A stretch of DNA of 64,000 nucleotides from Candidatus Poribacteria bacterium (GCA_965261125.1 CBDHCS010000005.1:4902-68901), one strand, 5' to 3'. Positions 10,672 through 51,394 are shown, counted from the first letter of the stretch. Notes: generated by a model not told the origin, from the sequence alone. Program-made: numbers and translations.

Positions 10672-11391
10672 TACGGATTCTCCTTTAACAATTCTAATAA
10701 CAAACTTTCTGTTCTAATTGCTTGCACCTTATTTCCTGCAAGGCGCATTGCAGCGAGATGTGCATGTAAAAATGCTAAATCTTCAGGTGTATCTACGTCG
10801 TACCAAGGGGGTAGAAGCTTGAGCGTAGCTTCTACGGTCTGAATACGTTTTACTGTCTGTTGAAAAACCTGCGGCGTACTCCACGCAATTTCCTCAAAGA
10901 TAAACGGAACTATTTTATTGAGATTTTCTATTGAAAAACCGATAAGATAATAACCGCCATCTACACTTGGACCAATAACAATATCGCGCGAGTCGAGACC
11001 TGCAACCGCTTCAAGAATATATGAAAGGGGAAGTGTCGGACTGTCGGAACCGACCAGTAAAATCTTTTCATATCCATTTTCGGATGCCCATTGCGTGGCA
11101 GAAGTAAGACGCACGCCCCAAATCTACGCCTGTTTGTGGAATGTAGGTAACATCGTTCCCAATTAACGCTTGTAAATCGCTTTGACTCTCTGGCGGCGTA
11201 TATGTGATAACCAAATCTATATTCGGGAGTTCAGCAAGGTTTTGGCACCAATCCAGGAGAAAAGCACGATATAACGATGCCGCTTGCTCTGGAGATAATA
11301 TTGGAAGTAGCCGCGTTTTTACCTGATTCGGGATCGGGTTTTTCGCGAAGACAATTAGACATGGACTCGATTCAGTATTCATCTGATGCAT
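10671..11391 (-). pseudogene. DUF2064 / TIGR04282-type glycosyltransferase-like gene split by a frameshift near 11105..11115
   Basis: ORFs 11068..11391 and 10671..11114 are consecutive parts of one family in different frames. The break is at a CCCC run. Confidence 0.5.
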
Positions 11392-11859
11392 CTCTCGTTT
11401 TAATAAACTTAAACAAGTTCACGCACCTCCAATTTATCAGATAACCGGGCAAAACGTCAACATAGAGTTGGATGTGTAAAGTTTTGGTTATATAATCTAA
11501 GTTGCCACATAGTAGCACAATTTGTTAGATTGTGTCTGTAAGGGCACAAACTAACAGATTGTGGGACAACTACTGTTATCCGCTATATTTCCGAAACAAG
11601 TTTATGAAAATGACCAATAACCTGAAAGTTCGCTGTATTAGGATAGGATACCATTTTTTATTATTCCCCCGCAACATCTCTGAACATCAGTGTTTCTACA
11701 AAAACTTTACACACTCCCTCTCAGGGTTATTTATAGTAAAGCCCATAATTATTTGGACACTTTTGTCCTTGTCCGCTCTCCCCCCGCTTGCGGGGGGTTG
11801 GGGGGCGGGATAAAGGAATATTTTCGTGTGTCCACTTAATTGTCGATTCTACTATAATG

Positions 11860-12250
11860 GGACACTTCTGTATCGCACCCTGTATGAAGATTAATTTATT
11901 AATTCGGTAATTTTCTATCCGTACGAGGCAAGTGTACTCCCCCGCTGGCGAGGCGGGGAATGCCTAAAGACGAATGCGCCTATGGCATTCGCCATGATTC
12001 ATACCCGGGGAATGCCAAAAGGCATTCATACCGTTGATTTCTTGATTTCTTCCTAACCTCGCCCAATTACCGAAATATTTTCTTAATCTTCATTTAGGTT
12101 GCGGACTCAGATGCACAACCTAAATGAAGATTAAGTTTTTAATTGGGTAATTATAATTTACTCCAAACCCCGGTAGGTGCGGTTTCCTAACCAATATATC
12201 TCCACGAATTACCTAATTTATTTTTTTATCTTCATATAGGTTGTGCTACA
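11860..12250. repeat. Composite family-D MITE (about 250 bp, long TIRs of the form TATGAAGATTAAtttattAATTCGGTAATT ... AATTACCGAAATATTttCTTAATCTTCATtTAGGTTG) plus extra solo TIR copies
   Basis: Internal GGAATGCC..GGCATTCC palindromes. The same architecture recurs at 24444, 37389, 43018 and 49570. Confidence 0.7.
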
Positions 12251-12384
12251 ACTTCTCTTGTCCGTTATGTTTCTGAAATAGGTTTATGAAGTTGAGATCG
12301 GTATTTGATTAGTTTTGTCGCTGACACCTTGCTGCGTGAGGGTAACGCCTAACTCATGAGAAACGACAGAGAGCAAGTGGCTTG

Positions 12385-15565: not shown

Positions 15566-17059
15566 ATGGCAGAAACGAATGAACGTGTTGACGGCGGCAC
15601 ACTTCCCGATTGGGAAGTCGCTGAATTACCAGCACCGCCACGATATAAATTTGGTAGAGCGTTTAGAAGTATCTTAGGACCAGGAATCATAGCACTTGGT
15701 GCTTCAATCGGCAGTGGGGAGTGGTTACTGGGGCCTAAAATTACGGCACAATATGGTGGCACGCTACTCTGGATTGCGACTATAGCAATCGTACTTCAAG
15801 CAGTTCTAAACACGGAAGCAATCCGTTACACCCTTTACACCGGCGAACCGATGCTTAGTGGATATATGCGTAGTAAACCGGGACCACGGTTCTGGGCTAT
15901 TTTCTATTCAAGTATAGATTTTTTCGCCATTTGGCCTGGATGGGCGATGGCAGCTGCGACCGCGCTTGCTGCTGCATGGCTGGGGTTTATGCCCACAGAT
16001 GCTGAGCAGAACACTGTTCGCATCTTTGCATATCTCATCTTTTTCGGTTGTCTTGCCATTGTCATGTTTGGTGGAAAAATTTACAACGCACTTGAAAAAG
16101 TGTTACTCTTCATGGTTGTTTGGATTATAGGATATTTGGTAATCGTAGACGTGTTTATGGTACCGCTAAATGTGTGGTGGGCCGTCATAAAAGGTTTCTT
16201 TAGTTTTGGTGTATTGCCACCAGATGTACGTTCAGAAGACTTTGATTGGTTGTTACTCGGTGCGTTTGCTGCTTATGCAGGAAGTGGGGGTTTAGGCAAT
16301 ATCACGATTTCTAATTACGTCCGCGATAAAGGATGGGGCATGAGTAGCCTGGTGGGGGCAATTCCATCTATCATCGGCGGAAAAAACGTCAAGCTATCTC
16401 ACCTGGGGAAAGTGTTTCGCATCAGTCCTGAAAACCTTGAACGTTTTCGTGAATGGTGGAAATATGTCCGATTTGAACAGTACTATATCTGGGTGATCGG
16501 TTGTTTTATCGGTTTAGCACTTCCTGCAATGTTAACATTGGCTTATCCACCTGAAGAAATAATGAATGATTGGTCTGCTGCAGCATACCAAGCAGATGGC
16601 CTTGCAGCTAAAGGTGGTAGAATCATGTGGTACCTCACACTGTTATGTGGGTTTTGGGTGCTTTTCTCAACACAACTCGGCAGTGTGGACGGCGTTCCAC
16701 GACGGTTTACAGATATTATTTGGACAGGTTTCAAAAGCGCCCGAAAAATGGGTGACCACAACGCAAAATGGATATACTATCCGATTCTCATCGTCTATAT
16801 CCTGTGGGGTGTTATTGCAATGTATTTGGCAAAACCGTTACTAATGATAATAGTATCCGCAACGGTGGGCGGTTATCAACTTGTGATTTGTGCACTTCAC
16901 ACATTATATGTTAACCGAAAATTCTTGCCGAAAGAGATACAACCCCCGATATGGAAACAGATAGGTCTGCTGTTGTGTGCGGGGTTCTATTCTATTTTCG
17001 GAACAATTACGGTTTACCAAAAAGTACTTGAGCCTTATATTTTACCGATTTTTCAGTAA
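15566..17059 (+). CDS. mntH: Nramp-family divalent metal (Mn2+/Fe2+) transporter
   Basis: 497 aa polytopic membrane protein with the N-terminal Nramp signature region (GPGIIALGASIGSGEW). Confidence 0.75.
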   Translation: MAETNERVDGGTLPDWEVAELPAPPRYKFGRAFRSILGPGIIALGASIGSGEWLLGPKITAQYGGTLLWIATIAIVLQAVLNTEAIRYTLYTGEPMLSGYMRSKPGPRFWAIFYSSIDFFAIWPGWAMAAATALAAAWLGFMPTDAEQNTVRIFAYLIFFGCLAIVMFGGKIYNALEKVLLFMVVWIIGYLVIVDVFMVPLNVWWAVIKGFFSFGVLPPDVRSEDFDWLLLGAFAAYAGSGGLGNITISNYVRDKGWGMSSLVGAIPSIIGGKNVKLSHLGKVFRISPENLERFREWWKYVRFEQYYIWVIGCFIGLALPAMLTLAYPPEEIMNDWSAAAYQADGLAAKGGRIMWYLTLLCGFWVLFSTQLGSVDGVPRRFTDIIWTGFKSARKMGDHNAKWIYYPILIVYILWGVIAMYLAKPLLMIIVSATVGGYQLVICALHTLYVNRKFLPKEIQPPIWKQIGLLLCAGFYSIFGTITVYQKVLEPYILPIFQ

Positions 17060-41694: not shown

Positions 41695-41842
41695 AATTCT
41701 TGTTTTTGTAATATTGGATACTGTATCTATATAAAAGTTTGAAAGTTTTGTAGAGCAAACTGTCAGTTTGCGTTTTCACAAGCACAATCTCACAGATTAT
41801 GCTACAAAGAGGGCAACTTAGGTTAAAATGATCAAAGAGTGT

Positions 41843-43030
41843 TTAAAAATCCTGTCCGATTGAAAAAGTATAGACTGCAGTGCCTTGGACGATATGAATG
41901 CGTTCATCCTCAGACACACTCGGCTTGAATTGAGGGGTATAAGCGGCATTTAGTGTAATGTTTCCGAACCGTGCCCCAAATCCGAAGCAGAGACCTTCTG
42001 CTTTCCAATTTCGCTCCTCCATTTCAAACGTAGCATCTTCCAAAAGAAAAACCGAAGCGTAACGCTTTTCAGTGTCCCTAAGGTATCCGATTCTACCGCC
42101 GATACGGTCGTGAAACCAAACTTCAGCGCCAAGGTTCGCTCGGACACCATCACTAAAAGGAGGGTGTAAATCAAATCCGAGCCGTAAAGACACGTTTGAA
42201 ATTTCGCGTTGGTAAGTTATACCCGCAATAAGATTGCGGCGAATTTTATCTGGAATAACGGGATCAACAAACGACAATCCATTACTTAAATTACGGATGA
42301 CAATGCCTGCCTGAAGTGCATTTCCAAATTTCTGAATGAGTCCGATATCATAGACGTAACCACGTCCGAGATGCTCGGTTTCCGACGGATCGGTAACTTT
42401 AGACCGCAACCACTTTGCATCAAATCCAATGAAGGTGCCTCTGAAACAATTTACACCGTAACCGAGTCCAATAGCAAGGTTATTTTTTGGAAAACTATTG
42501 AGTGCTTTTCCTTCGTGGTCGACACGGCGAAAGGATCCTTCATGTGCTGTAGATAAAGCAAAACCTATAGTGCCGAATCTGCCTATTGGAAATGCGCAAT
42601 TCAATGTTTCAATACCGGCAGCACGCTGTTCATACTGGCTATAATCCTCGTAGTTTGCATTGAAATTCGGTTTAGAAAGGAGGGCAACGGTCCGTGGAAA
42701 ACGTGCCATGTGAATTACAAATTGATCTCCCTTAGCAACACCGATACCAGCGGGGTTGTTACCAAGCGCGTTTGCGCCAGTGGTTGCCCCGACAAAACTT
42801 CCACCCATTCCACGATGCTCAGCACCAAGCAACTGTTTGAGAAATCTGTCTGCTTCTGCAGTTGTATTTGCCACTGAGGCGGTACCATTTGAAACATAAA
42901 AACAGGAAACAAGGTAGAATAGGCAAATCAACAAAGATATTTTTAAATACTGTAGTGACTGAATCTGGCAGAGCGAGGATCGTAAATTTCTTTTCACTTT
43001 CTTACTTACTCCAAGGGCATATTGTAGCAT
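41843..43030 (-). CDS. Putative outer-membrane beta-barrel protein
   Basis: Signal-like segment, alternating amphipathic strands, C-terminal ...YTFSIGQDF ending in Phe. The ATG at 43030 lies inside a repeat; a GTG at 42997 is an alternative start. Confidence 0.45.
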   Translation of the reverse strand: MLQYALGVSKKVKRNLRSSLCQIQSLQYLKISLLICLFYLVSCFYVSNGTASVANTTAEADRFLKQLLGAEHRGMGGSFVGATTGANALGNNPAGIGVAKGDQFVIHMARFPRTVALLSKPNFNANYEDYSQYEQRAAGIETLNCAFPIGRFGTIGFALSTAHEGSFRRVDHEGKALNSFPKNNLAIGLGYGVNCFRGTFIGFDAKWLRSKVTDPSETEHLGRGYVYDIGLIQKFGNALQAGIVIRNLSNGLSFVDPVIPDKIRRNLIAGITYQREISNVSLRLGFDLHPPFSDGVRANLGAEVWFHDRIGGRIGYLRDTEKRYASVFLLEDATFEMEERNWKAEGLCFGFGARFGNITLNAAYTPQFKPSVSEDERIHIVQGTAVYTFSIGQDF

Positions 43031-43718: not shown

Positions 43719-44546
43719 TCACCGATAAAGAGTATCTATCATCCGTGCTGCACGGACTGTAGCCTTAACATCATGGACGCGTACAATATCTGCCCCATGT
43801 GTGATTGCCCAACAGGCCGTAGCGAGAGAGCCTTCAACCCTTTCAGTTACAGGAAGGTCTAATAAGTTGCCAATAAAGGATTTTCGTGATGTGCCGATTA
43901 ATATCGGCTTGTTTAGTTGTCTGAATACGTCAAGATGTTTTAAAACCTGTAAATTCTGTTTGATAGTTTTGCCGAATCCGATGCCAGGGTCTACAATTAT
44001 ACGGTTTGGATCAATGCCATTTTGTATTGCATCGTCAATCCAACTTTCTAATGCCTCGTAAATTTCTTTCACGACATTTTGATACTGTGGTGCCTGTTGC
44101 ATTGTACGTGGTGTCCCCTTCATGTGCATAAGTATAACACCCGCTTCCATTTCTGCTGCAACGTGTGCCATCGCGGCATCCCTACGAAGTGCGGTAATAT
44201 CGTTGATGATATGTGCCCCAGCTTCAAGTGCTTGTTGTGCTACCACTGCTTTTGTAGTATCAATGGAAAGTGGAACATTTAGTTGTTCAGAAACAACTGC
44301 ACGGATAACCGGTAATATCCTTTCTAATTCTACTTTTGCTGTCACCGGTTCCGCCCCTGGGCGCGATGATTCCCCGCCGATGTCAATAATAGTTGCCCCT
44401 TCTGCTACCATGGTTTTGGCATGCGCAACAGCAGTGCCAACATCAAGATAAGCACCGCCATCCGAAAATGAATCGGGGGTAACATTTAGAACACCCATGA
44501 TGTGGGTGCTGTCGCCAAAAGAGAGCGATTTACCACGGCAGTTCAT
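43719..44546 (-). CDS. folP: Dihydropteroate synthase
   Basis: [14 protein letters not shown] pterin-binding signature. Confidence 0.9.
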
Positions 44547-46454
44547 ATAAGAGGCTTAGCGGGCAACTGCGGCCGGGGTCCGAGTATCTCTTCAATTTCT
44601 TCAGTAATTAACGTTTCTCGTTCTAACAAGGCATCGGCGAGTAATTTCAAACCCTCAAGATTCGTTTCTATAATCTCTTTTGCCTTTTCGTAACACTCCG
44701 TTATGATGTCAAAAACAGCTTTATCAATAGCAATTGCTGTTTCTTCACTGTAATCCTGGTGTACTGCCAGTTCTTTGCCCAGGAAGACCTGTTCATCTCT
44801 TCTGCCGAAAGCCAATGGTCCCAATGGACTCATCCCCCATTGTGTGACCATTCGACGGGCAAGATGGGTTGCTTGTTCAAAATCGTTTTGTGCGCCAGTC
44901 GTCTGCTCACCGAAGATAATTTCTTCAGCTACACGCCCACCGAGTGCAAAAATAATATGTGCAAGGAGTCCCTTCTTATTTAGATTATGTCGTTCTTCCA
45001 GGGGTAGCTTAGCTGTTACGCCCAACGCTCTCCCACGCGGAACGATTGTACATTTATAGTTAGGGTCACTTTCTGGCACAAAATGCAACATGAGCGCATG
45101 TCCTGCTTCATGATAGGCAGTGATGCGCCGTTCTTCGTCACTAATCACCAAACTACGACGTTCAGGTCCCATCAGAACGCGATCTTTCGCTTCATCAAAG
45201 CAGCTCATATCAATCGTTTCTTTGTCTTGCCTCGCGGCAAGGAGCGCGGCTTCGTTCGCCATATTTTTCAGGTCCGCTCCTGAAAATCCAGGTGTCGCTT
45301 TCGCTAAGATCTCCAAGTTGACATCTTCAGCTATTTTATAAGGTTCTTTTGTGTGAACGTCAAGAATCGCTTGCCTGCCTCGAACATCGGGTAAATCAAC
45401 GATAATCTGACGGTCAAACCTGCCGGGGCGCAATAGGGCAGGGTCAAGAACATCCGGACGGTTTGTAGCTGCGATCACGATGACACCTTCAGACGACTCA
45501 AAACCTTGCATGCCGACAAGCAGTTGATTTAAAGTTTGTTCGCGTTCGTCATGCCCGCCGCCGATGCCAGCCCCTCGATGGCGACCCACAGCATCAAGCT
45601 CATCAATAAAAATGATACAAGGTGCGTTCTTTTTACCCGTTTCAAATAGGTCACGGACTCTGGATGCACCCACCCCGACAAACATTTCAACAAAATCGGA
45701 TCCGCTGATGGTAAAAAATGGGACATCTGCTTCACTTGCAACGGCTTGCGCCAGCATTGTTTTACCCGTACCGGGGGGGACCGACTAACAACACACCTGT
45801 AGGAATTGTTCCACCCAGTCTCTCAAACTTTTTAGGTGCTTTGAGAAATTCAATAATTTCTTCAAGTGCCTCTTTTGCCTCATCTACCCCTGCGACATCT
45901 TCAAACTTTGGTAACTTTTCGTTTTCCGTATGGAGTGTGGCACGACTTTTACCAAAGGAAAGTGCGCGGTTTCCGCTCCCTTGCATCTGCCGAGATAGAA
46001 AAATCATCAACCCCAAAAATATCAATAACGGAACTATTGTTGTGCCGAAAACGAGTAACCAATTAGGAAAATTAGAGGCAGGTTTGGCATTGTACGGGAT
46101 GCCGACGTTATCAAGTCTTTCCTGGATTCCATAATCGTCATTTGTATCACGGCTTGCCTTAAATTCTCCTGCCCATTTTTCAGGCACCACCATATTTGGG
46201 CTTTCCAATTCTATCCTAATTTCCATCAGATAATTCTCGTGAAACTTACCTTCAATCCACTCGTCATCAAGAATCAAATGCCCATCAAAGCGGTTACCTT
46301 TATCCTTTACGTAGTTTGGATCTATGTAGTTATGAAAGTCGGATGTTGCTAACTGGATAACAAGGTCGCCACGGTTGATAAGTTGGTAAATAGCGACAAC
46401 AACAACTAACCCCAAAATAAACCACACAAACATGTTTTTTGTGTTCTTGTTCAC
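44543..46454 (-). CDS. ftsH: ATP-dependent zinc metalloprotease FtsH, interrupted inside the Walker A motif by a 1-bp insertion in a C7 run (plus-strand G7 at about 45769..45776)
   Basis: N-terminal ORF ends ...LLVGPPRYG*. Removing one C restores [16 protein letters not shown]-terminal ORF has the AAA and HEAGH protease domains. ftsH-folP synteny as in other bacteria. Confidence 0.85.
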
Positions 46455-46783
46455 AACTTATTGCCTCGTTTTGATTAAAATTTACCACACTTTGAGCGAT
46501 GCCGTAGACCATAGCACGCATTCAGAACAACCACTCAAATTATGCACGCTCACGTAATTTTAGCGGCAATCTGCTTCTTCTGTGTCTGTTTTTAGAAAAG
46601 ATGTTTAAACTTTGTGAGTAAATTATAACATACTTTTTGCTTAATATCAACTGAAATTTTAAAATTCCTTCTCATGACCATTCTTCACTATATTTCTATC
46701 CCCATCAATAACTTATTGCAAATCCGCTATATTTTAAGATATACTGTAGGAAAAGATAAACAGATAAATAGGATTTTGATAAA

Positions 46784-47962
46784 GTGCGTATTATTTTTTA
46801 TACGGGCAAAGGTGGTGTCGGCAAAACGACTATCTCTGCTGCGACAGGCATGAAGTTGGCATCGCTTGGATATAAGACGCTTGTTATCTCACTTGACGTA
46901 GCACATTCGCTCCGCGACTCGTTTGATAGTGAAGCGTCCCTGATAGCAGAGCGTACCGAAAAACAGATACACATCTGCGACAATCTCTGGATACAGGAAA
47001 TTAACGTTCAAGAAGCGATTACTGAATATTGGGATGAGGTTTACAACTACATCCGTTCTTTACTGAATCGTTCTGGTCTTGAAACGCTTGTAGCAGAAGA
47101 GATAGCTGTATTTCCGGGGATGGAAGAGATCTGCGCGCTGCTTTACATCAACCAGTATGTCCGTGAAAACACATACGACGTTATTATCCTTGACTGTGCG
47201 CCGACAGGTGAATCGTTGCGGTTTGTTAGTATCCCTACTACGCTTGAATGGTATATGAACCGCATCTTCAAATTAGAGCGGAATCTTGCAAGAATCGCAG
47301 GGCCTGTGATTGAAAAGGTCAGTTCTGTCCCATTACCAAAGGATGCTTATTTCCAAAATATCCAGAACCTCTTTGATAAATTAGAAGGGATTGATACAGT
47401 ACTAACGGACCCGAAAATTACAACTGTGCGCTTGGTAACAAACCCAGAAAAAATTGTCATCAAAGAGACACAACGTGCATTTATGTACTTCTGTCTTTAC
47501 GGGTTATGTATTGATGCGGTCATTATTAACCGTATTTTTCCTGAGGGTATTGATGTAAAGTTTTTTGAAGCTTGGAAACAGACACAACAGCAATATATTG
47601 AAGAAGCCGAGAACTATTTTTCGGATGTGCCAATTTGGAAGGTTAATCTTTTTGACGATCAGATTGTTGGGGAAACAGGACTCCGTAGGTTAGGAGATGT
47701 CCTCTATCCTGACATTGATCCTGCAGAAAAGTTCTCGGATCAAAGTCCGTATCAATTTCGGAAAGTTGACGGTATTTATCAACTTGTGATGCAGCTTCCA
47801 TTTTTAACCAAGCAAGAAGTTAACCTTGCCAAGCATGGTGATGAATTAATCGTTACAATTGGCGGTTTCAAGCGACATGTTGCTTTACCACGCAGCCTTG
47901 CAAGCACTAAAGCAACAGGAGCAAAACTCACTGGACAGCAACTTGTTATTACCTTTCAATAA
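46784..47962 (+). CDS. ArsA/Get3-family P-loop ATPase fused to a C-terminal Hsp20/alpha-crystallin-like domain
   Basis: GTG start. GKGGVGKTT P-loop and DCAPTGESLRF signature. The C-terminal about 90 aa form an HSP20-like beta-sandwich (GDELIVTIGGFKRHVALP). Confidence 0.75.
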   Translation: MRIIFYTGKGGVGKTTISAATGMKLASLGYKTLVISLDVAHSLRDSFDSEASLIAERTEKQIHICDNLWIQEINVQEAITEYWDEVYNYIRSLLNRSGLETLVAEEIAVFPGMEEICALLYINQYVRENTYDVIILDCAPTGESLRFVSIPTTLEWYMNRIFKLERNLARIAGPVIEKVSSVPLPKDAYFQNIQNLFDKLEGIDTVLTDPKITTVRLVTNPEKIVIKETQRAFMYFCLYGLCIDAVIINRIFPEGIDVKFFEAWKQTQQQYIEEAENYFSDVPIWKVNLFDDQIVGETGLRRLGDVLYPDIDPAEKFSDQSPYQFRKVDGIYQLVMQLPFLTKQEVNLAKHGDELIVTIGGFKRHVALPRSLASTKATGAKLTGQQLVITFQ

Positions 47963-48039
47963 ACTTTTTGTAAATTCATACGTCTCATATTGCGCTTTAA
48001 AGGAATGAATCTCAATACAGATAAGAGCGTATTAACCAA

Positions 48040-48813
48040 ATGATGATATTTCCAATTCCGAGAAGGAAAAAAGGTGAACCATTTAGTGACGAACAAACTC
48101 CGCCACGCCATTACTTAGTTAATACCCTCACAGATAAAGCCGTACTTACTGTAGCCTTTACCACATTTTTAACGTTCTTATTACTGTTTTTATTACCGAT
48201 CAGGTCGTTAGGTATCGGCGCTATCTGGTGGCTTTACCCAAACCTATTGATTGCAATCGGATGGTTTGGCTATCTCATCCGATTAAATAGAAATATCGCT
48301 GAGGATGAATCGTCCCAATTGTTATTCCATAGTGTTTTATTTGGATCGGCAGCTACAGCAACATACTTGCCGTTGGACTGGTTATTTTCGAGAGAATTGC
48401 GGTTTATCGTCTACACCAGTTACGATTTTTGGGTAAATGTAACGACACCTATTGGCTTGATAATGACTTGGGTGCTTTTCGCAACATTAGCCGTTTACTG
48501 CTACCATCGGCTTGAAATGTTCGGTCTGCACCGTTTCGCTGCTTCAGGGATAACAGGGATTGCCGCTGCGATTGGAAGCATCGTTATCTACGGACTTGGA
48601 AAAGAACTATGGGAATGGAATGTCCTGCGTGTTGATAATATTCCACACATTGCAACCGTTCCAATTTTTATCCCAATTACATTTTTACTTACCTACACCC
48701 TCTATCCTTACTACTTTCACCGTAGGCAACATGCATTGATAGCTGGGATACGGTGTGGGCTTTTCATGGGAATGGTGATGTTTTTGAGTTTTTTCGTCTT
48801 TTGGCGTATATAA
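48040..48813 (+). CDS. Polytopic membrane protein, unknown function
   Basis: 257 aa with about 6 predicted TM helices. Immediately downstream of the ArsA-Hsp20 gene. Confidence 0.45.
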   Translation: MMIFPIPRRKKGEPFSDEQTPPRHYLVNTLTDKAVLTVAFTTFLTFLLLFLLPIRSLGIGAIWWLYPNLLIAIGWFGYLIRLNRNIAEDESSQLLFHSVLFGSAATATYLPLDWLFSRELRFIVYTSYDFWVNVTTPIGLIMTWVLFATLAVYCYHRLEMFGLHRFAASGITGIAAAIGSIVIYGLGKELWEWNVLRVDNIPHIATVPIFIPITFLLTYTLYPYYFHRRQHALIAGIRCGLFMGMVMFLSFFVFWRI

Positions 48814-48927: not shown

Positions 48928-49488
48928 ATGGACTTACTTGAAAAGAAAAGGATACGTTCAACAACGATATTGGCGGTACGTCGTAACGGGCAAATCGCTA
49001 TTGGTGGAGATGGTCAGGTTACGTTAGGTGATACGGCTATTAAACATAGTGCTCGTAAAATTCGTAAGATTTATCAGGATAGTGTTCTTATCGGGTTCGC
49101 GGGGTCTGGTTCAGATGCGCTTACCCTCTATGAAAATTTAGAGAAGAAATTGGAACAGTACCGAGGCAACCTGCAGAAAGCTTCGGTGGAGCTCGCAAGA
49201 GATTGGCGTAGTGATCGTATTCTTAGACGTGCGGAAGCTTTGATGATAGCGATCAATGAAAACGATAGCTATCTGATTTCTGGTAACGGCGATCTCATCA
49301 TCCCTGACGACGATATTCTCGCTATTGGTTCAGGTGGTTCAATTGCGCTCTCTGCTTCCCGAGCTTTACTTAAATACTCAGAGCTGACCGCCGCTGAGGT
49401 TGTCGCTGAAGCATTAAAAATTACGAGTGAAATCTGCATCTACACAAACGCGCAGATTGAAATTGAATCAATTGAAACTGAAGAATAG
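48928..49488 (+). CDS. hslV: ATP-dependent protease subunit HslV
   Basis: TTILAVRRNG...GGDGQVT N-terminal Thr active-site region. Confidence 0.9.
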   Translation: MDLLEKKRIRSTTILAVRRNGQIAIGGDGQVTLGDTAIKHSARKIRKIYQDSVLIGFAGSGSDALTLYENLEKKLEQYRGNLQKASVELARDWRSDRILRRAEALMIAINENDSYLISGNGDLIIPDDDILAIGSGGSIALSASRALLKYSELTAAEVVAEALKITSEICIYTNAQIEIESIETEE

Positions 49489-49569
49489 GATAACCCAAGT
49501 TGCTACCTATAAGTTTTTAGACATGCAAATACCGTTTTTTATTGAGAATAGTTCGTTATAGGTGAACTA

Positions 49570-49826
49570 TTGTAGAGCAACCTGTTAGGTTGCGTCCGCT
49601 ACGGCACAACCTAAATGAAGTTTAAGAAAATAAATCCTAAATGAAGTTTAAGAAAATAAATCGGTAATTTGGCGAGGTTAGGAAGAAATCAACGGTATGA
49701 ATGCCATTAAGGCATTCCCCGCCTTGCCAGCGGGGAGTACACCTACCTCATACGGATAGAAAATTACCGAATTAATAAATTAATCTTCATACAGATTGTG
49801 CTACAGAGATGGCAACTTAGATTAGG
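49570..49826. repeat. Family-D composite MITE, copy 7, inserted between hslV and hslU. Contains an internal 27-bp tandem duplication CCTAAATGAAGTTTAAGAAAATAAATC
   Basis: Read directly; same module order as copy 6. Confidence 0.75.
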
Positions 49827-49894
49827 ATATTCAAAATTTCTGTTATTTTGGTTGCGGCACAGCGGATGTGCCACCACCTTTTTAGGAGGTTACA

Positions 49895-51394
49895 TTGGAG
49901 AAATCAACTGTTGAAACGAAAATTTTGGCGGACGCGTTAACCCCCCGGCAAATTGTGGAAGAGCTGGATAAGTATATTATTGGGCAGTTTGAAGCGAAAC
50001 GGAGCGTTGCGATTGCGCTGCGTAATCGCGCCCGTCGGCAGATGCTTGCGGACGATATGCAAGATGAAGTTTCACCGAAAAATATCATCATGATCGGCTC
50101 AACGGGTGTCGGTAAAACAGAAATCGCCCGTCGCCTCGCGCGCCTTGTTGATGCACCATTTATCAAAGTCGAAGCCTCTAAATATACGGAAATCGGTTAC
50201 GTTGGGCGTGATGTTGAATCAATGATTCGCGATCTTACGGAACTCTCTGTCAGCAGAGTGAAAGTAGAACAGACCGCCTCTGTTGAAGAAGAAGCATTAA
50301 AATTAACCGAAGAACGTTTATTAGACAGCTTATTCCCGATGCCTCGGTCTTTAAAAAGTCAACCCACTCAAGAACCCCCCGATGACCTTGATATAGATGA
50401 AGATATAGATATAATAGATGAAGATATAGATGAAGACGACATCCCATTTCCGTTTGATTTAGTAGACACAACTGACGAACAAAATGAGGCGTTAGAAAGA
50501 CAACGCGAACGACACCTCAAGACGCGTGAAAAATTACGGCAGCAATTGAAGGATGGTAAATTCGAAGATAAAGACGTTGAAATCAACATGAAAAGTCGAA
50601 GTATGCCGTTTGTGGAGATATTTTCGCCGGGTGGTATTGAGGAGATGGACATTAACTTTAAGGATATGTTCAGCAGCATTCTCCCGAATCAGACAAAAAA
50701 ACGGCGGGTGAAGGTATCCGAAGCACGACAAATTCTGGTGCAAGAGGAAGCGGAAAAACTAATTGATATGGATGCTGTCATCAGTGAAGCGATTGAACGC
50801 GTTGAAAACTCTGGGATTGTCTTTTTAGATGAAATTGACAAAATTGCAGGGCGCGAATCTCGACAGGGACCGGATGTGTCACGCGAAGGTGTACAACGTG
50901 ATATCCTGCCAATTATTGAAGGGAGCACCGTCACAACGAAATATGGTGCAGTGCGTACACATCACATCTTGTTCATTGCTGCGGGTGCCTTTCATGTCTC
51001 TAATCCGTCAGACCTCATTCCTGAACTTCAGGGGAGGTTTCCTATCCGCGTTGAACTCAAAAGTCTAAATAAAGATGACTTCAAATCTATTTTGACCGAA
51101 CCGAAAAATGCATTAGTCAAGCAGTATACGGCACTCCTCCAGACCGAGGGAATAGAAGCAGATATTACTGAAGATGCGATTGACGAAATCGCTGCGCTCG
51201 CGTTTCAAGTAAACGAGTCTGTGGAGGATATCGGTGCCCGTCGTCTACACACGATCATGGAAAAACTTTTTGAGAACCTGTTTTTTGACGCGCCTGATCT
51301 TGAGGAGAAGGGTGTTACTGTTGATGCAGATTATGTCAGAGGTGAATTGGCAGAAATCGTTAAGGATCAGGATCTGAGTAGGTATATTCTTTAG
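49895..51394 (+). CDS. hslU: ATP-dependent protease ATPase subunit HslU, with an acidic [17 protein letters not shown] insertion in the I-domain
   Basis: TTG start after AGGAGG. Walker [16 protein letters not shown]. Confidence 0.9.

Follow-up and report, generated by a model that had tools for sequence, protein, structure and literature searches.

What does an ATPase of the ArsA/Get3 family do in Candidatus Poribacteria when it carries an alpha-crystallin domain at its C-terminus and its gene is followed by that of a multi-pass membrane protein? The question is raised by 64,000 nt of Candidatus Poribacteria DNA (GCA_965261125.1, CBDHCS010000005.1:4902-68901), referred to below as the window; Poribacteria are described as sponge-associated. 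A first-pass annotation had proposed that the ATPase (arsA-αCD, here also arsA) and the membrane protein form a bacterial module for the targeting or rescue of membrane proteins. The gene order points in another direction. The two genes open a four-gene block that continues with the protease genes hslV and hslU, and on balance the block probably serves protein quality control, with a chaperone of the Group 6 type (Farkas 2019, PMC6593721) at its head, together with a seven-transmembrane (7-TM) protein and HslVU.

A conserved block of four genes

The membrane gene is directly followed by hslV, the gene of the proteasome-like peptidase subunit, and then by hslU, which encodes the AAA+ unfoldase of the HslVU protease. 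Both were overlooked in the first-pass annotation. Conservation of the block was counted by tblastn on 80 Poribacteria genome loci. The ATPase gene lies directly upstream of the membrane gene at 76 of them, hslV lies directly downstream of it at all 80, and hslU follows hslV at 79. The same position of hslV is found at L081-L083 and L091-L098, while L099 and L100 end at the membrane gene and are not informative for hslV. For extra loci, a metagenome scan with lineage-specific N-terminal patterns yielded none and a second scan yielded 8.

The flanks vary more than the block of arsA-αCD, membrane gene, hslV and hslU: in a set of 71 loci, 29 different clusters supply the gene upstream of arsA and 9 supply the one after hslU. 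Identity across the Poribacteria loci is 75-96% for HslU, 80-96% for the ATPase (60-94% for its alpha-crystallin domain), and 42-89% for the membrane protein. These identities show a housekeeping-like chaperone beside a fast-evolving membrane protein.

The ATPase and its alpha-crystallin domain

The 392-aa protein is a member of a large family, both bacterial and archaeal, of single-domain Get3/ArsA-fold ATPases with a C-terminal alpha-crystallin domain. Its description as a single-domain ArsA/Get3-family ATPase is confirmed by the match to Pfam PF02374 (Table 1), by a score of 264 bits against TIGR00345 (GET3_arsA_TRC40, cutoff 135), and by the presence of both motifs first noticed, GKGGVGKTT at residues 8-16 (including the deviant Walker A sequence GKGGVGKT, 8-15) and DCAPTGESLRF at residues 137-147. 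Switch I has Asp38, switch II reads DCAPTGES, and DCAPT is invariant throughout the family. The AlphaFold2 (AF2) model, made with 55 homologues, has a Get3-type alpha/beta core (predicted local distance difference test, pLDDT, 85; predicted TM-score, pTM, 0.85).

Residues 323-391 form a seven-strand beta-sandwich in the AF2 model, and residues 329-391 match Pfam PF17886 (ArsA_HSP20) over the complete model length with E 5e-20. In a sequence search, the isolated C-terminal 76 residues match the alpha-crystallin domain of NosGet3d (3igf residues 308-366, E 4e-5). The Hsp20 domain of the first-pass annotation therefore holds in fold and not in size, as it comprises about 70 residues rather than about 90, preceded by a 15-residue linker.

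Among solved structures, two from archaeal Get3/TRC40, 3ug6 (E 3.5e-48) and 3zq6, come closest to the ATPase domain in sequence. Foldseek gives the same top matches for the ATPase part, 3zq6 (E 3e-23) and 3ug6, and produces alignments of about 400 columns that include the sandwich only with the Get3d structures 8egk, 3igf, and 8elf. Against the NosAFP/Get3d equivalog NF050088 the protein scores 148.2 bits, under the cutoff of 325. It has cysteines at residues 65, 117, 138, 237, and 242 and no CxxC; VKFF aligns to the CDFC of MjGet3.

The putative client-binding region, at about residues 142-208, consists of long AF2 helices at 142-179 and 187-208. The alignment of residues 150-205 to the insert of MjGet3 has one 5-residue gap; the region is 45% hydrophobic and has 1 Met.

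The membrane protein

The first-pass annotation had also placed a 257-aa multi-pass membrane protein directly after the ATPase, and this is correct. The two genes are on the same strand with a spacer of 77 bp, AF2 predicts about 7 long helices (pLDDT 78, pTM 0.75) in agreement with hydropathy, and there are 170 homologous clusters. All 80 genome loci retrieved with the protein, as well as the named homologues among the best 120 of the 170 clusters, belong to Candidatus Poribacteria. Across 57 sequences with 41-88% identity, 28 columns are invariant, and the invariant motifs include PxDWLFSR, LWxWN, and GIRCG.

The sole family match is DUF6989 (PF22497), with 23.1 bits for the window protein, under the threshold of 27. 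A match at E<0.1 is present in 28 of the 57 relatives, the best at 1.7e-7. To judge from these profile scores, the protein is at most a distant DUF6989 relative, and a literature search for DUF6989 found nothing relevant. Most homologues have 223-249 aa and start near residue 27 of the window protein. In the sub-lineage of the window there is no start codon at that position, and the protein begins at the upstream ATG, like P0002, P0020, and P0028. Foldseek of the model against the PDB returned nothing below E = 1. In gene order this phylum-specific protein is primarily a partner of hslVU rather than of the ATPase.

Putative promoter and transcription

A putative sigma-70-like promoter lies about 35-38 nt before the conserved GTG start of arsA. 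Its -35/-10 block (TTGCAA-N17/18-TATACT) is kept in 10 of 11 aligned Poribacteria loci, in which the sequence and genes further upstream differ. It is the only candidate of a consensus scan to gain support, and it does so through this cross-species conservation. The spacer between the membrane gene and hslV is conserved at the bases proximal to the ribosome-binding site only and has no conserved promoter. A search for the CIRCE heat-shock operator with up to 3 mismatches gave 0 matches. Since the arsA promoter is conserved and there are no conserved internal promoters or terminators, the four genes are probably one transcription unit.

The spacer between hslV and hslU (49489-49894) is 406 bp long in the window, whereas relatives have roughly 70 bp. 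Within it, 26 nt are exactly duplicated in tandem (49610-49661) and 30 nt recur as an inverted repeat (49641-49670 / 49761-49790), so a small insertion is suggested.

Where the pairing breaks

Beyond the Poribacteria the neighbour of the ATPase changes. In all 8 independent contexts, among them an actinobacterial one with WhiB, an archaeal-looking one with F420 genes, and a Dehalococcoidia one, the ATPase gene is directly followed by a small gene of PF27253 (AF_1253); none of the 8 has a DUF6989-like membrane gene or hslVU. Assignments to PF27253 are precomputed Pfam labels. The pairing of ATPase and membrane gene is thus conserved in other Poribacteria genomes and is not found in the 8 contexts beyond the phylum, where the PF27253 gene stands instead. 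The PF27253 protein has 59-88 aa, is soluble, and contains the core motif H-L-x-x-A-x-x-E-x-L-x-x-x-R, with CPxC pairs in some copies. It is the ancestral partner of the ATPase and, because its gene directly follows the ATPase gene in every one of these contexts, a strong candidate to be the cofactor that is missing. No genomic partner is mentioned in the two main papers on the ATPase family (PMC6593721, PMC10248533), and a literature search for AF_1253 found nothing relevant.

Some Poribacteria still have the small gene. L040 keeps an intact 67-aa copy between the ATPase and membrane genes, and the copy in L037 is frameshifted. In L092, which belongs to a deep lineage, the genes run ATPase, AF_1253, metallophosphoesterase, membrane gene, hslV, hslU. 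In deep-branching relatives the metallophosphoesterase lies between the AF_1253 gene and the trio of membrane gene and hslVU, and it is absent from the window lineage. The Poribacteria-type PF27253 protein forms only 20 clusters, versus 170 for the membrane protein. A six-frame search of the window gave no PF27253 match, and the spacer after the ATPase leaves no room for the gene. It has been lost from the window lineage, and the membrane gene now directly follows the ATPase.

The ATPase is itself absent from L003, L004, L055, L081-L083, L091, and L093, where the membrane gene and hslVU remain. Absence here refers to the block locus. The complete chromosomes OX638351 and OZ244563 are examples without arsA at this place. 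The persistence of the membrane gene with hslVU at these loci means that the membrane protein and HslVU are the invariant pair. L003, L004, L082, and L083 are beside insertion sequence (IS) elements, L081 and L091 have the metallophosphoesterase, and L093 has AF_1253.

Four observations on these loci are added. The ATPase of L092 (504-1718), on a short Logan contig, is called as two pieces of 204 aa and 171 aa, and this split is a frameshift or an assembly error. The metallophosphoesterase (PF00149/PF12850) directly precedes the trio of membrane gene and hslVU at L081:7186-7926, L091:5176-5916, L092:2131-2868, and L093:3035-3808. In genomes without the ATPase before the membrane gene, transposase genes (DDE_Tnp_1, DUF4096, DDE_3) flank the trio on both sides (L083:5258-6017 and 11352-12383; L082:11352-12383), which suggests that IS-mediated rearrangement removed or moved the ATPase. 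In actinobacterial-type contexts, only 27 bp separate the ATPase gene from the end of a preceding gene for an Rce1-like CPBP intramembrane protease (L086:4240-4974, L090:4240-4974), and this membrane neighbour is found in that lineage only.

Table 1. Coordinates of the block, its domains and putative promoter in the window, and of PF27253 genes at related loci
Feature	Position	Strand	Basis or detail
Putative sigma-70-like promoter (TTGCAA, 18 nt spacer, TATACT)	46716..46745	+	consensus scan
arsA-αCD ATPase, open reading frame (ORF)	46784-47962	+	GTG start, 392 aa
ArsA/Get3-fold ATPase domain, residues 1-308	46784..47707	+	Pfam PF02374 ArsA_ATPase, E 6.3e-96
Alpha-crystallin/Hsp20-like domain, residues 323-391, with stop codon	47750..47962	+	Pfam PF17886, AF2
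Poribacteria-specific membrane protein, about 7 helices, at most a distant DUF6989 relative	48040..48813	+	ATG start, 257 aa
hslV, proteasome-like peptidase subunit	48928..49488	+	Pfam Proteasome, E 2e-23
hslU, AAA+ unfoldase of HslVU protease	49895..51394	+	Pfam AAA_2, AAA, ClpB_D2-small
PF27253 gene, outside Poribacteria	L084:6198-6449		
PF27253 gene, outside Poribacteria	L085:6217-6396		
PF27253 gene, outside Poribacteria	L086:6194-6460		
PF27253 gene, outside Poribacteria	L087:6201-6428		
PF27253 gene, outside Poribacteria	L088:6184-6414		
PF27253 gene, outside Poribacteria	L089:4119-4349		
PF27253 gene, outside Poribacteria	L101:2975-3196		
PF27253 gene, Poribacteria	L040:7730-7933		
PF27253 gene, Poribacteria	L092:1739-1933		
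PF27253 gene, Poribacteria	L093:2646-2840		

Interpretation

In the Poribacteria sampled, the ATPase is usually locked with HslVU and a private 7-TM protein, and this points to proteostasis rather than to arsenic or to dedicated tail-anchor targeting. By homology with its family, the ATPase would be a homodimer formed by way of the deviant Walker A site. Binding of ATP would close this dimer, so that the helical subdomain at about residues 142-208 could form a hydrophobic groove and shield hydrophobic segments, whether transmembrane or not. The alpha-crystallin domain may pack against the ATPase core, like its counterpart in NosGet3d, and act as a regulatory or holdase module. With contacts presumed among the four proteins, the chaperone would hold hydrophobic or aggregation-prone clients, which would then be released or degraded by HslVU, and the membrane protein may localise or modulate the HslVU arm at the membrane.

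Several points weigh against a quality-control block headed by the chaperone. Conservation of the block is confined to one phylum, so shared ancestry contributes to it. The helical client region has a single Met, unlike that of eukaryotic Get3. The consensus scan for promoters and terminators gave counts not above shuffled expectation. The PF27253 partner, universal elsewhere, is missing from the window. Membrane gene and hslVU are kept at the loci that lack the ATPase, so the chaperone is dispensable for them, at least in cis.

Purely historical adjacency is a serious rival, although we consider it unlikely. An ancestral arsA-αCD and AF_1253 pair would have landed by chance beside the membrane gene and hslVU in the ancestor of the Poribacteria, and the order would have been kept by inertia without functional meaning. 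The two pairs do separate cleanly, as arsA occurs with AF_1253 elsewhere and the membrane gene occurs with hslVU without arsA in several lineages, and all of the evidence comes from one phylum. However, the block persists in lineages whose membrane proteins share only 40-50% identity and despite at least 29 changes of the upstream neighbour, a conserved promoter is found in front of arsA only, and all four products are plausibly proteostatic.

A more specific form of the quality-control reading makes the 7-TM protein a membrane-side adaptor that couples the Get3-like chaperone to HslVU for triage or extraction of membrane proteins (hold, reinsert, degrade), functionally replacing the PF27253 cofactor found with the ATPase in all other sampled phyla. 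This version is improbable.

We give equally little credence to the module first proposed, in which a Get3-like targeting factor and a 7-TM receptor or insertase would target or rescue tail-anchored or other membrane proteins. The adjacency of the two genes in most Poribacteria loci, the persistence of the block amid shuffled flanks, the loss of the small partner gene that brought the membrane gene directly behind the ATPase in the window lineage, and the Get3 fold with a helical region like the TRC40 insert would all suit it. In contrast, the pairing is absent from all 8 contexts outside Poribacteria, the membrane gene stays with hslVU at the ATPase-less loci, and 1-2 genes intervene in L040 and L092. 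The model of the membrane protein has no Get1, WRB, EMC3, YidC, or Oxa1-like match, and the load of tail-anchored proteins does not correlate with the presence of Get3 homologues (Farkas 2019, PMC6593721). Fold, distribution outside the phylum, and pattern of gene loss thus lend the proposal no support, and a receptor relationship is unsupported beyond the gene order of one phylum.

A role as catalytic subunit in the efflux of arsenite/antimonite by a pump (a true ArsA), suggested solely by the Pfam family name and by automatic labels ("arsenite-transporting ATPase") on homologues, is refuted, since the protein has one domain and 392 aa versus tandem A1-A2 halves of about 580 aa, which makes the three-Cys site of E. 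coli ArsA (Cys113/172/422) impossible in one chain, scores 108.2 bits against TIGR04291 (cutoff 650) and 130 against NF041417 (cutoff 800), and has no match to ArsB, ACR3, ArsD, ArsR, or ArsC among the window ORFs scanned with Pfam (the polytopic ORFs, those flanking the pair, and most small ORFs) or among the genes called in the related loci compared, as the first-pass annotation had argued from the lack of ars genes nearby.

The role of bacterial Get3 homologues that bear an alpha-crystallin domain counts as a recognised open question (Farkas 2019, Barlow 2023), which the Poribacteria locus leaves unanswered. It provides two leads: the PF27253 gene that follows the ATPase outside Poribacteria, and the association of the Poribacteria ATPase with HslVU and the 7-TM protein.

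Other features of the window

Upstream of the block, in divergent orientation, are ftsH, folP, and acpS. An ftsH gene adjoins the block in the window only and in none of the 80 related loci. This minus-strand gene is read as two ORFs (45762-46454 and 44543-45757) owing to a +1 frameshift at 45757-45775, within a run of seven C in the Walker A codons, which changes GPPGTGKT to GPPRYG*. Either the homopolymer was missequenced or the gene is a genuine pseudogene.

The four polytopic ORFs of the window encode an unassigned 497-aa protein, an M50 peptidase, the membrane protein of the block, and a prepilin peptidase. The 497-aa ORF (15566-17059, +) has at least 7 predicted transmembrane segments and no Pfam match at E<0.001. 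Between a UPF0029 (YigZ-like) gene and acpS is a 395-aa ORF (41843-43030, -) with an N-terminal hydrophobic segment and no Pfam match. The palindromic intergenic motif GTAGAGCAA(A/C)CTGT(C/T)AG(T/G)TTGC is present in 2 copies (41750-41771 and 49572-49593) versus 0 expected by chance, and may be a REP-like (repetitive extragenic palindromic) repeat.

Comparison with known systems

The fusion of ATPase and alpha-crystallin domain is already described and widespread, and it is no special feature of the Poribacteria locus, because it has its own Pfam domain, constitutes Group 6 of Farkas 2019, and occurs in many phyla. A profile of distant representatives finds at least 8000 clusters (90% identity) at E<=1e-30. 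At the 50% identity level, 673 clusters have E<1e-30. The 120 of the 90%-identity clusters that were listed carry PF02374 and PF17886 and come from Chloroflexota, Actinomycetota, Methanosarcinales, and others. The fusion itself is therefore ordinary.

Group 6 proteins are single-domain, carry a TRC40 insert and an alpha-crystallin domain, lack CxxC, and keep their nucleotide site intact (PMC6593721). They occur in many non-photosynthetic phyla and are listed as being without Get1/2/4-binding residues; their role is unknown, and the authors propose a general chaperone (PMC6593721). A literature search for functional studies of Group 6 proteins found none, and one for Poribacteria with HslVU, ArsA, or Get3 gave general Get3 papers only. 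The window protein shares with Group 6 the single Get3 domain, the intact P-loop and switches, the lack of CxxC, the alpha-crystallin domain, and a cytoplasmic location, and its predicted helices may correspond to the TRC40 insert. It differs in that the gene is without the usual downstream PF27253 gene of the family and heads a block with the 7-TM gene and hslVU. The published survey did not include Poribacteria.

E. coli ArsA (1f48) shares the P-loop NTPase fold and the Pfam family (88 bits). It is, in contrast, a 583-aa tandem duplication encoded in ars operons, and the window protein has one domain and no ars context.

Archaeal Get3/TRC40 from M. jannaschii (3ug6) and M. thermautotrophicus (3zq6) are the top matches for residues 1-319, with a helix 7-9 insert of comparable length. 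They have no alpha-crystallin domain. MjGet3 also has DTAPTGHT in switch II where the window protein has DCAPTGES, besides the CDFC that is replaced by VKFF. The window ATPase lacks the CxxC feature of the zinc-mediated dimer of Get3-TRC40 tail-anchor factors, and the membrane protein shows no resemblance to a membrane receptor or insertase of the Get1/WRB/Oxa1 type. In structure it weakly resembles MvINS (4xu4), an Insig homologue from mycobacteria.

Get3d binds transmembrane domains and hydrolyses ATP, and its partners are unknown; NosGet3d and AtGet3d have degenerate active sites, and their A-loops are missing (Barlow 2023, PMC10248533). The Get3d proteins (NosGet3d 3igf/8egk, AtGet3d 8elf) and the window protein have in common the two-domain layout, a homologous alpha-crystallin domain, and the absence of CxxC. 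Unlike them, the window ATPase keeps the P-loop, the switch I Asp, and switch II; its ATPase domain is nearer to archaeal Get3 (168 bits) than to Get3d (78 bits), and the Poribacteria window has no sign of photosynthesis. Its sequence features suggest that the window protein is a catalytically intact relative of Get3d that fits Group 6.

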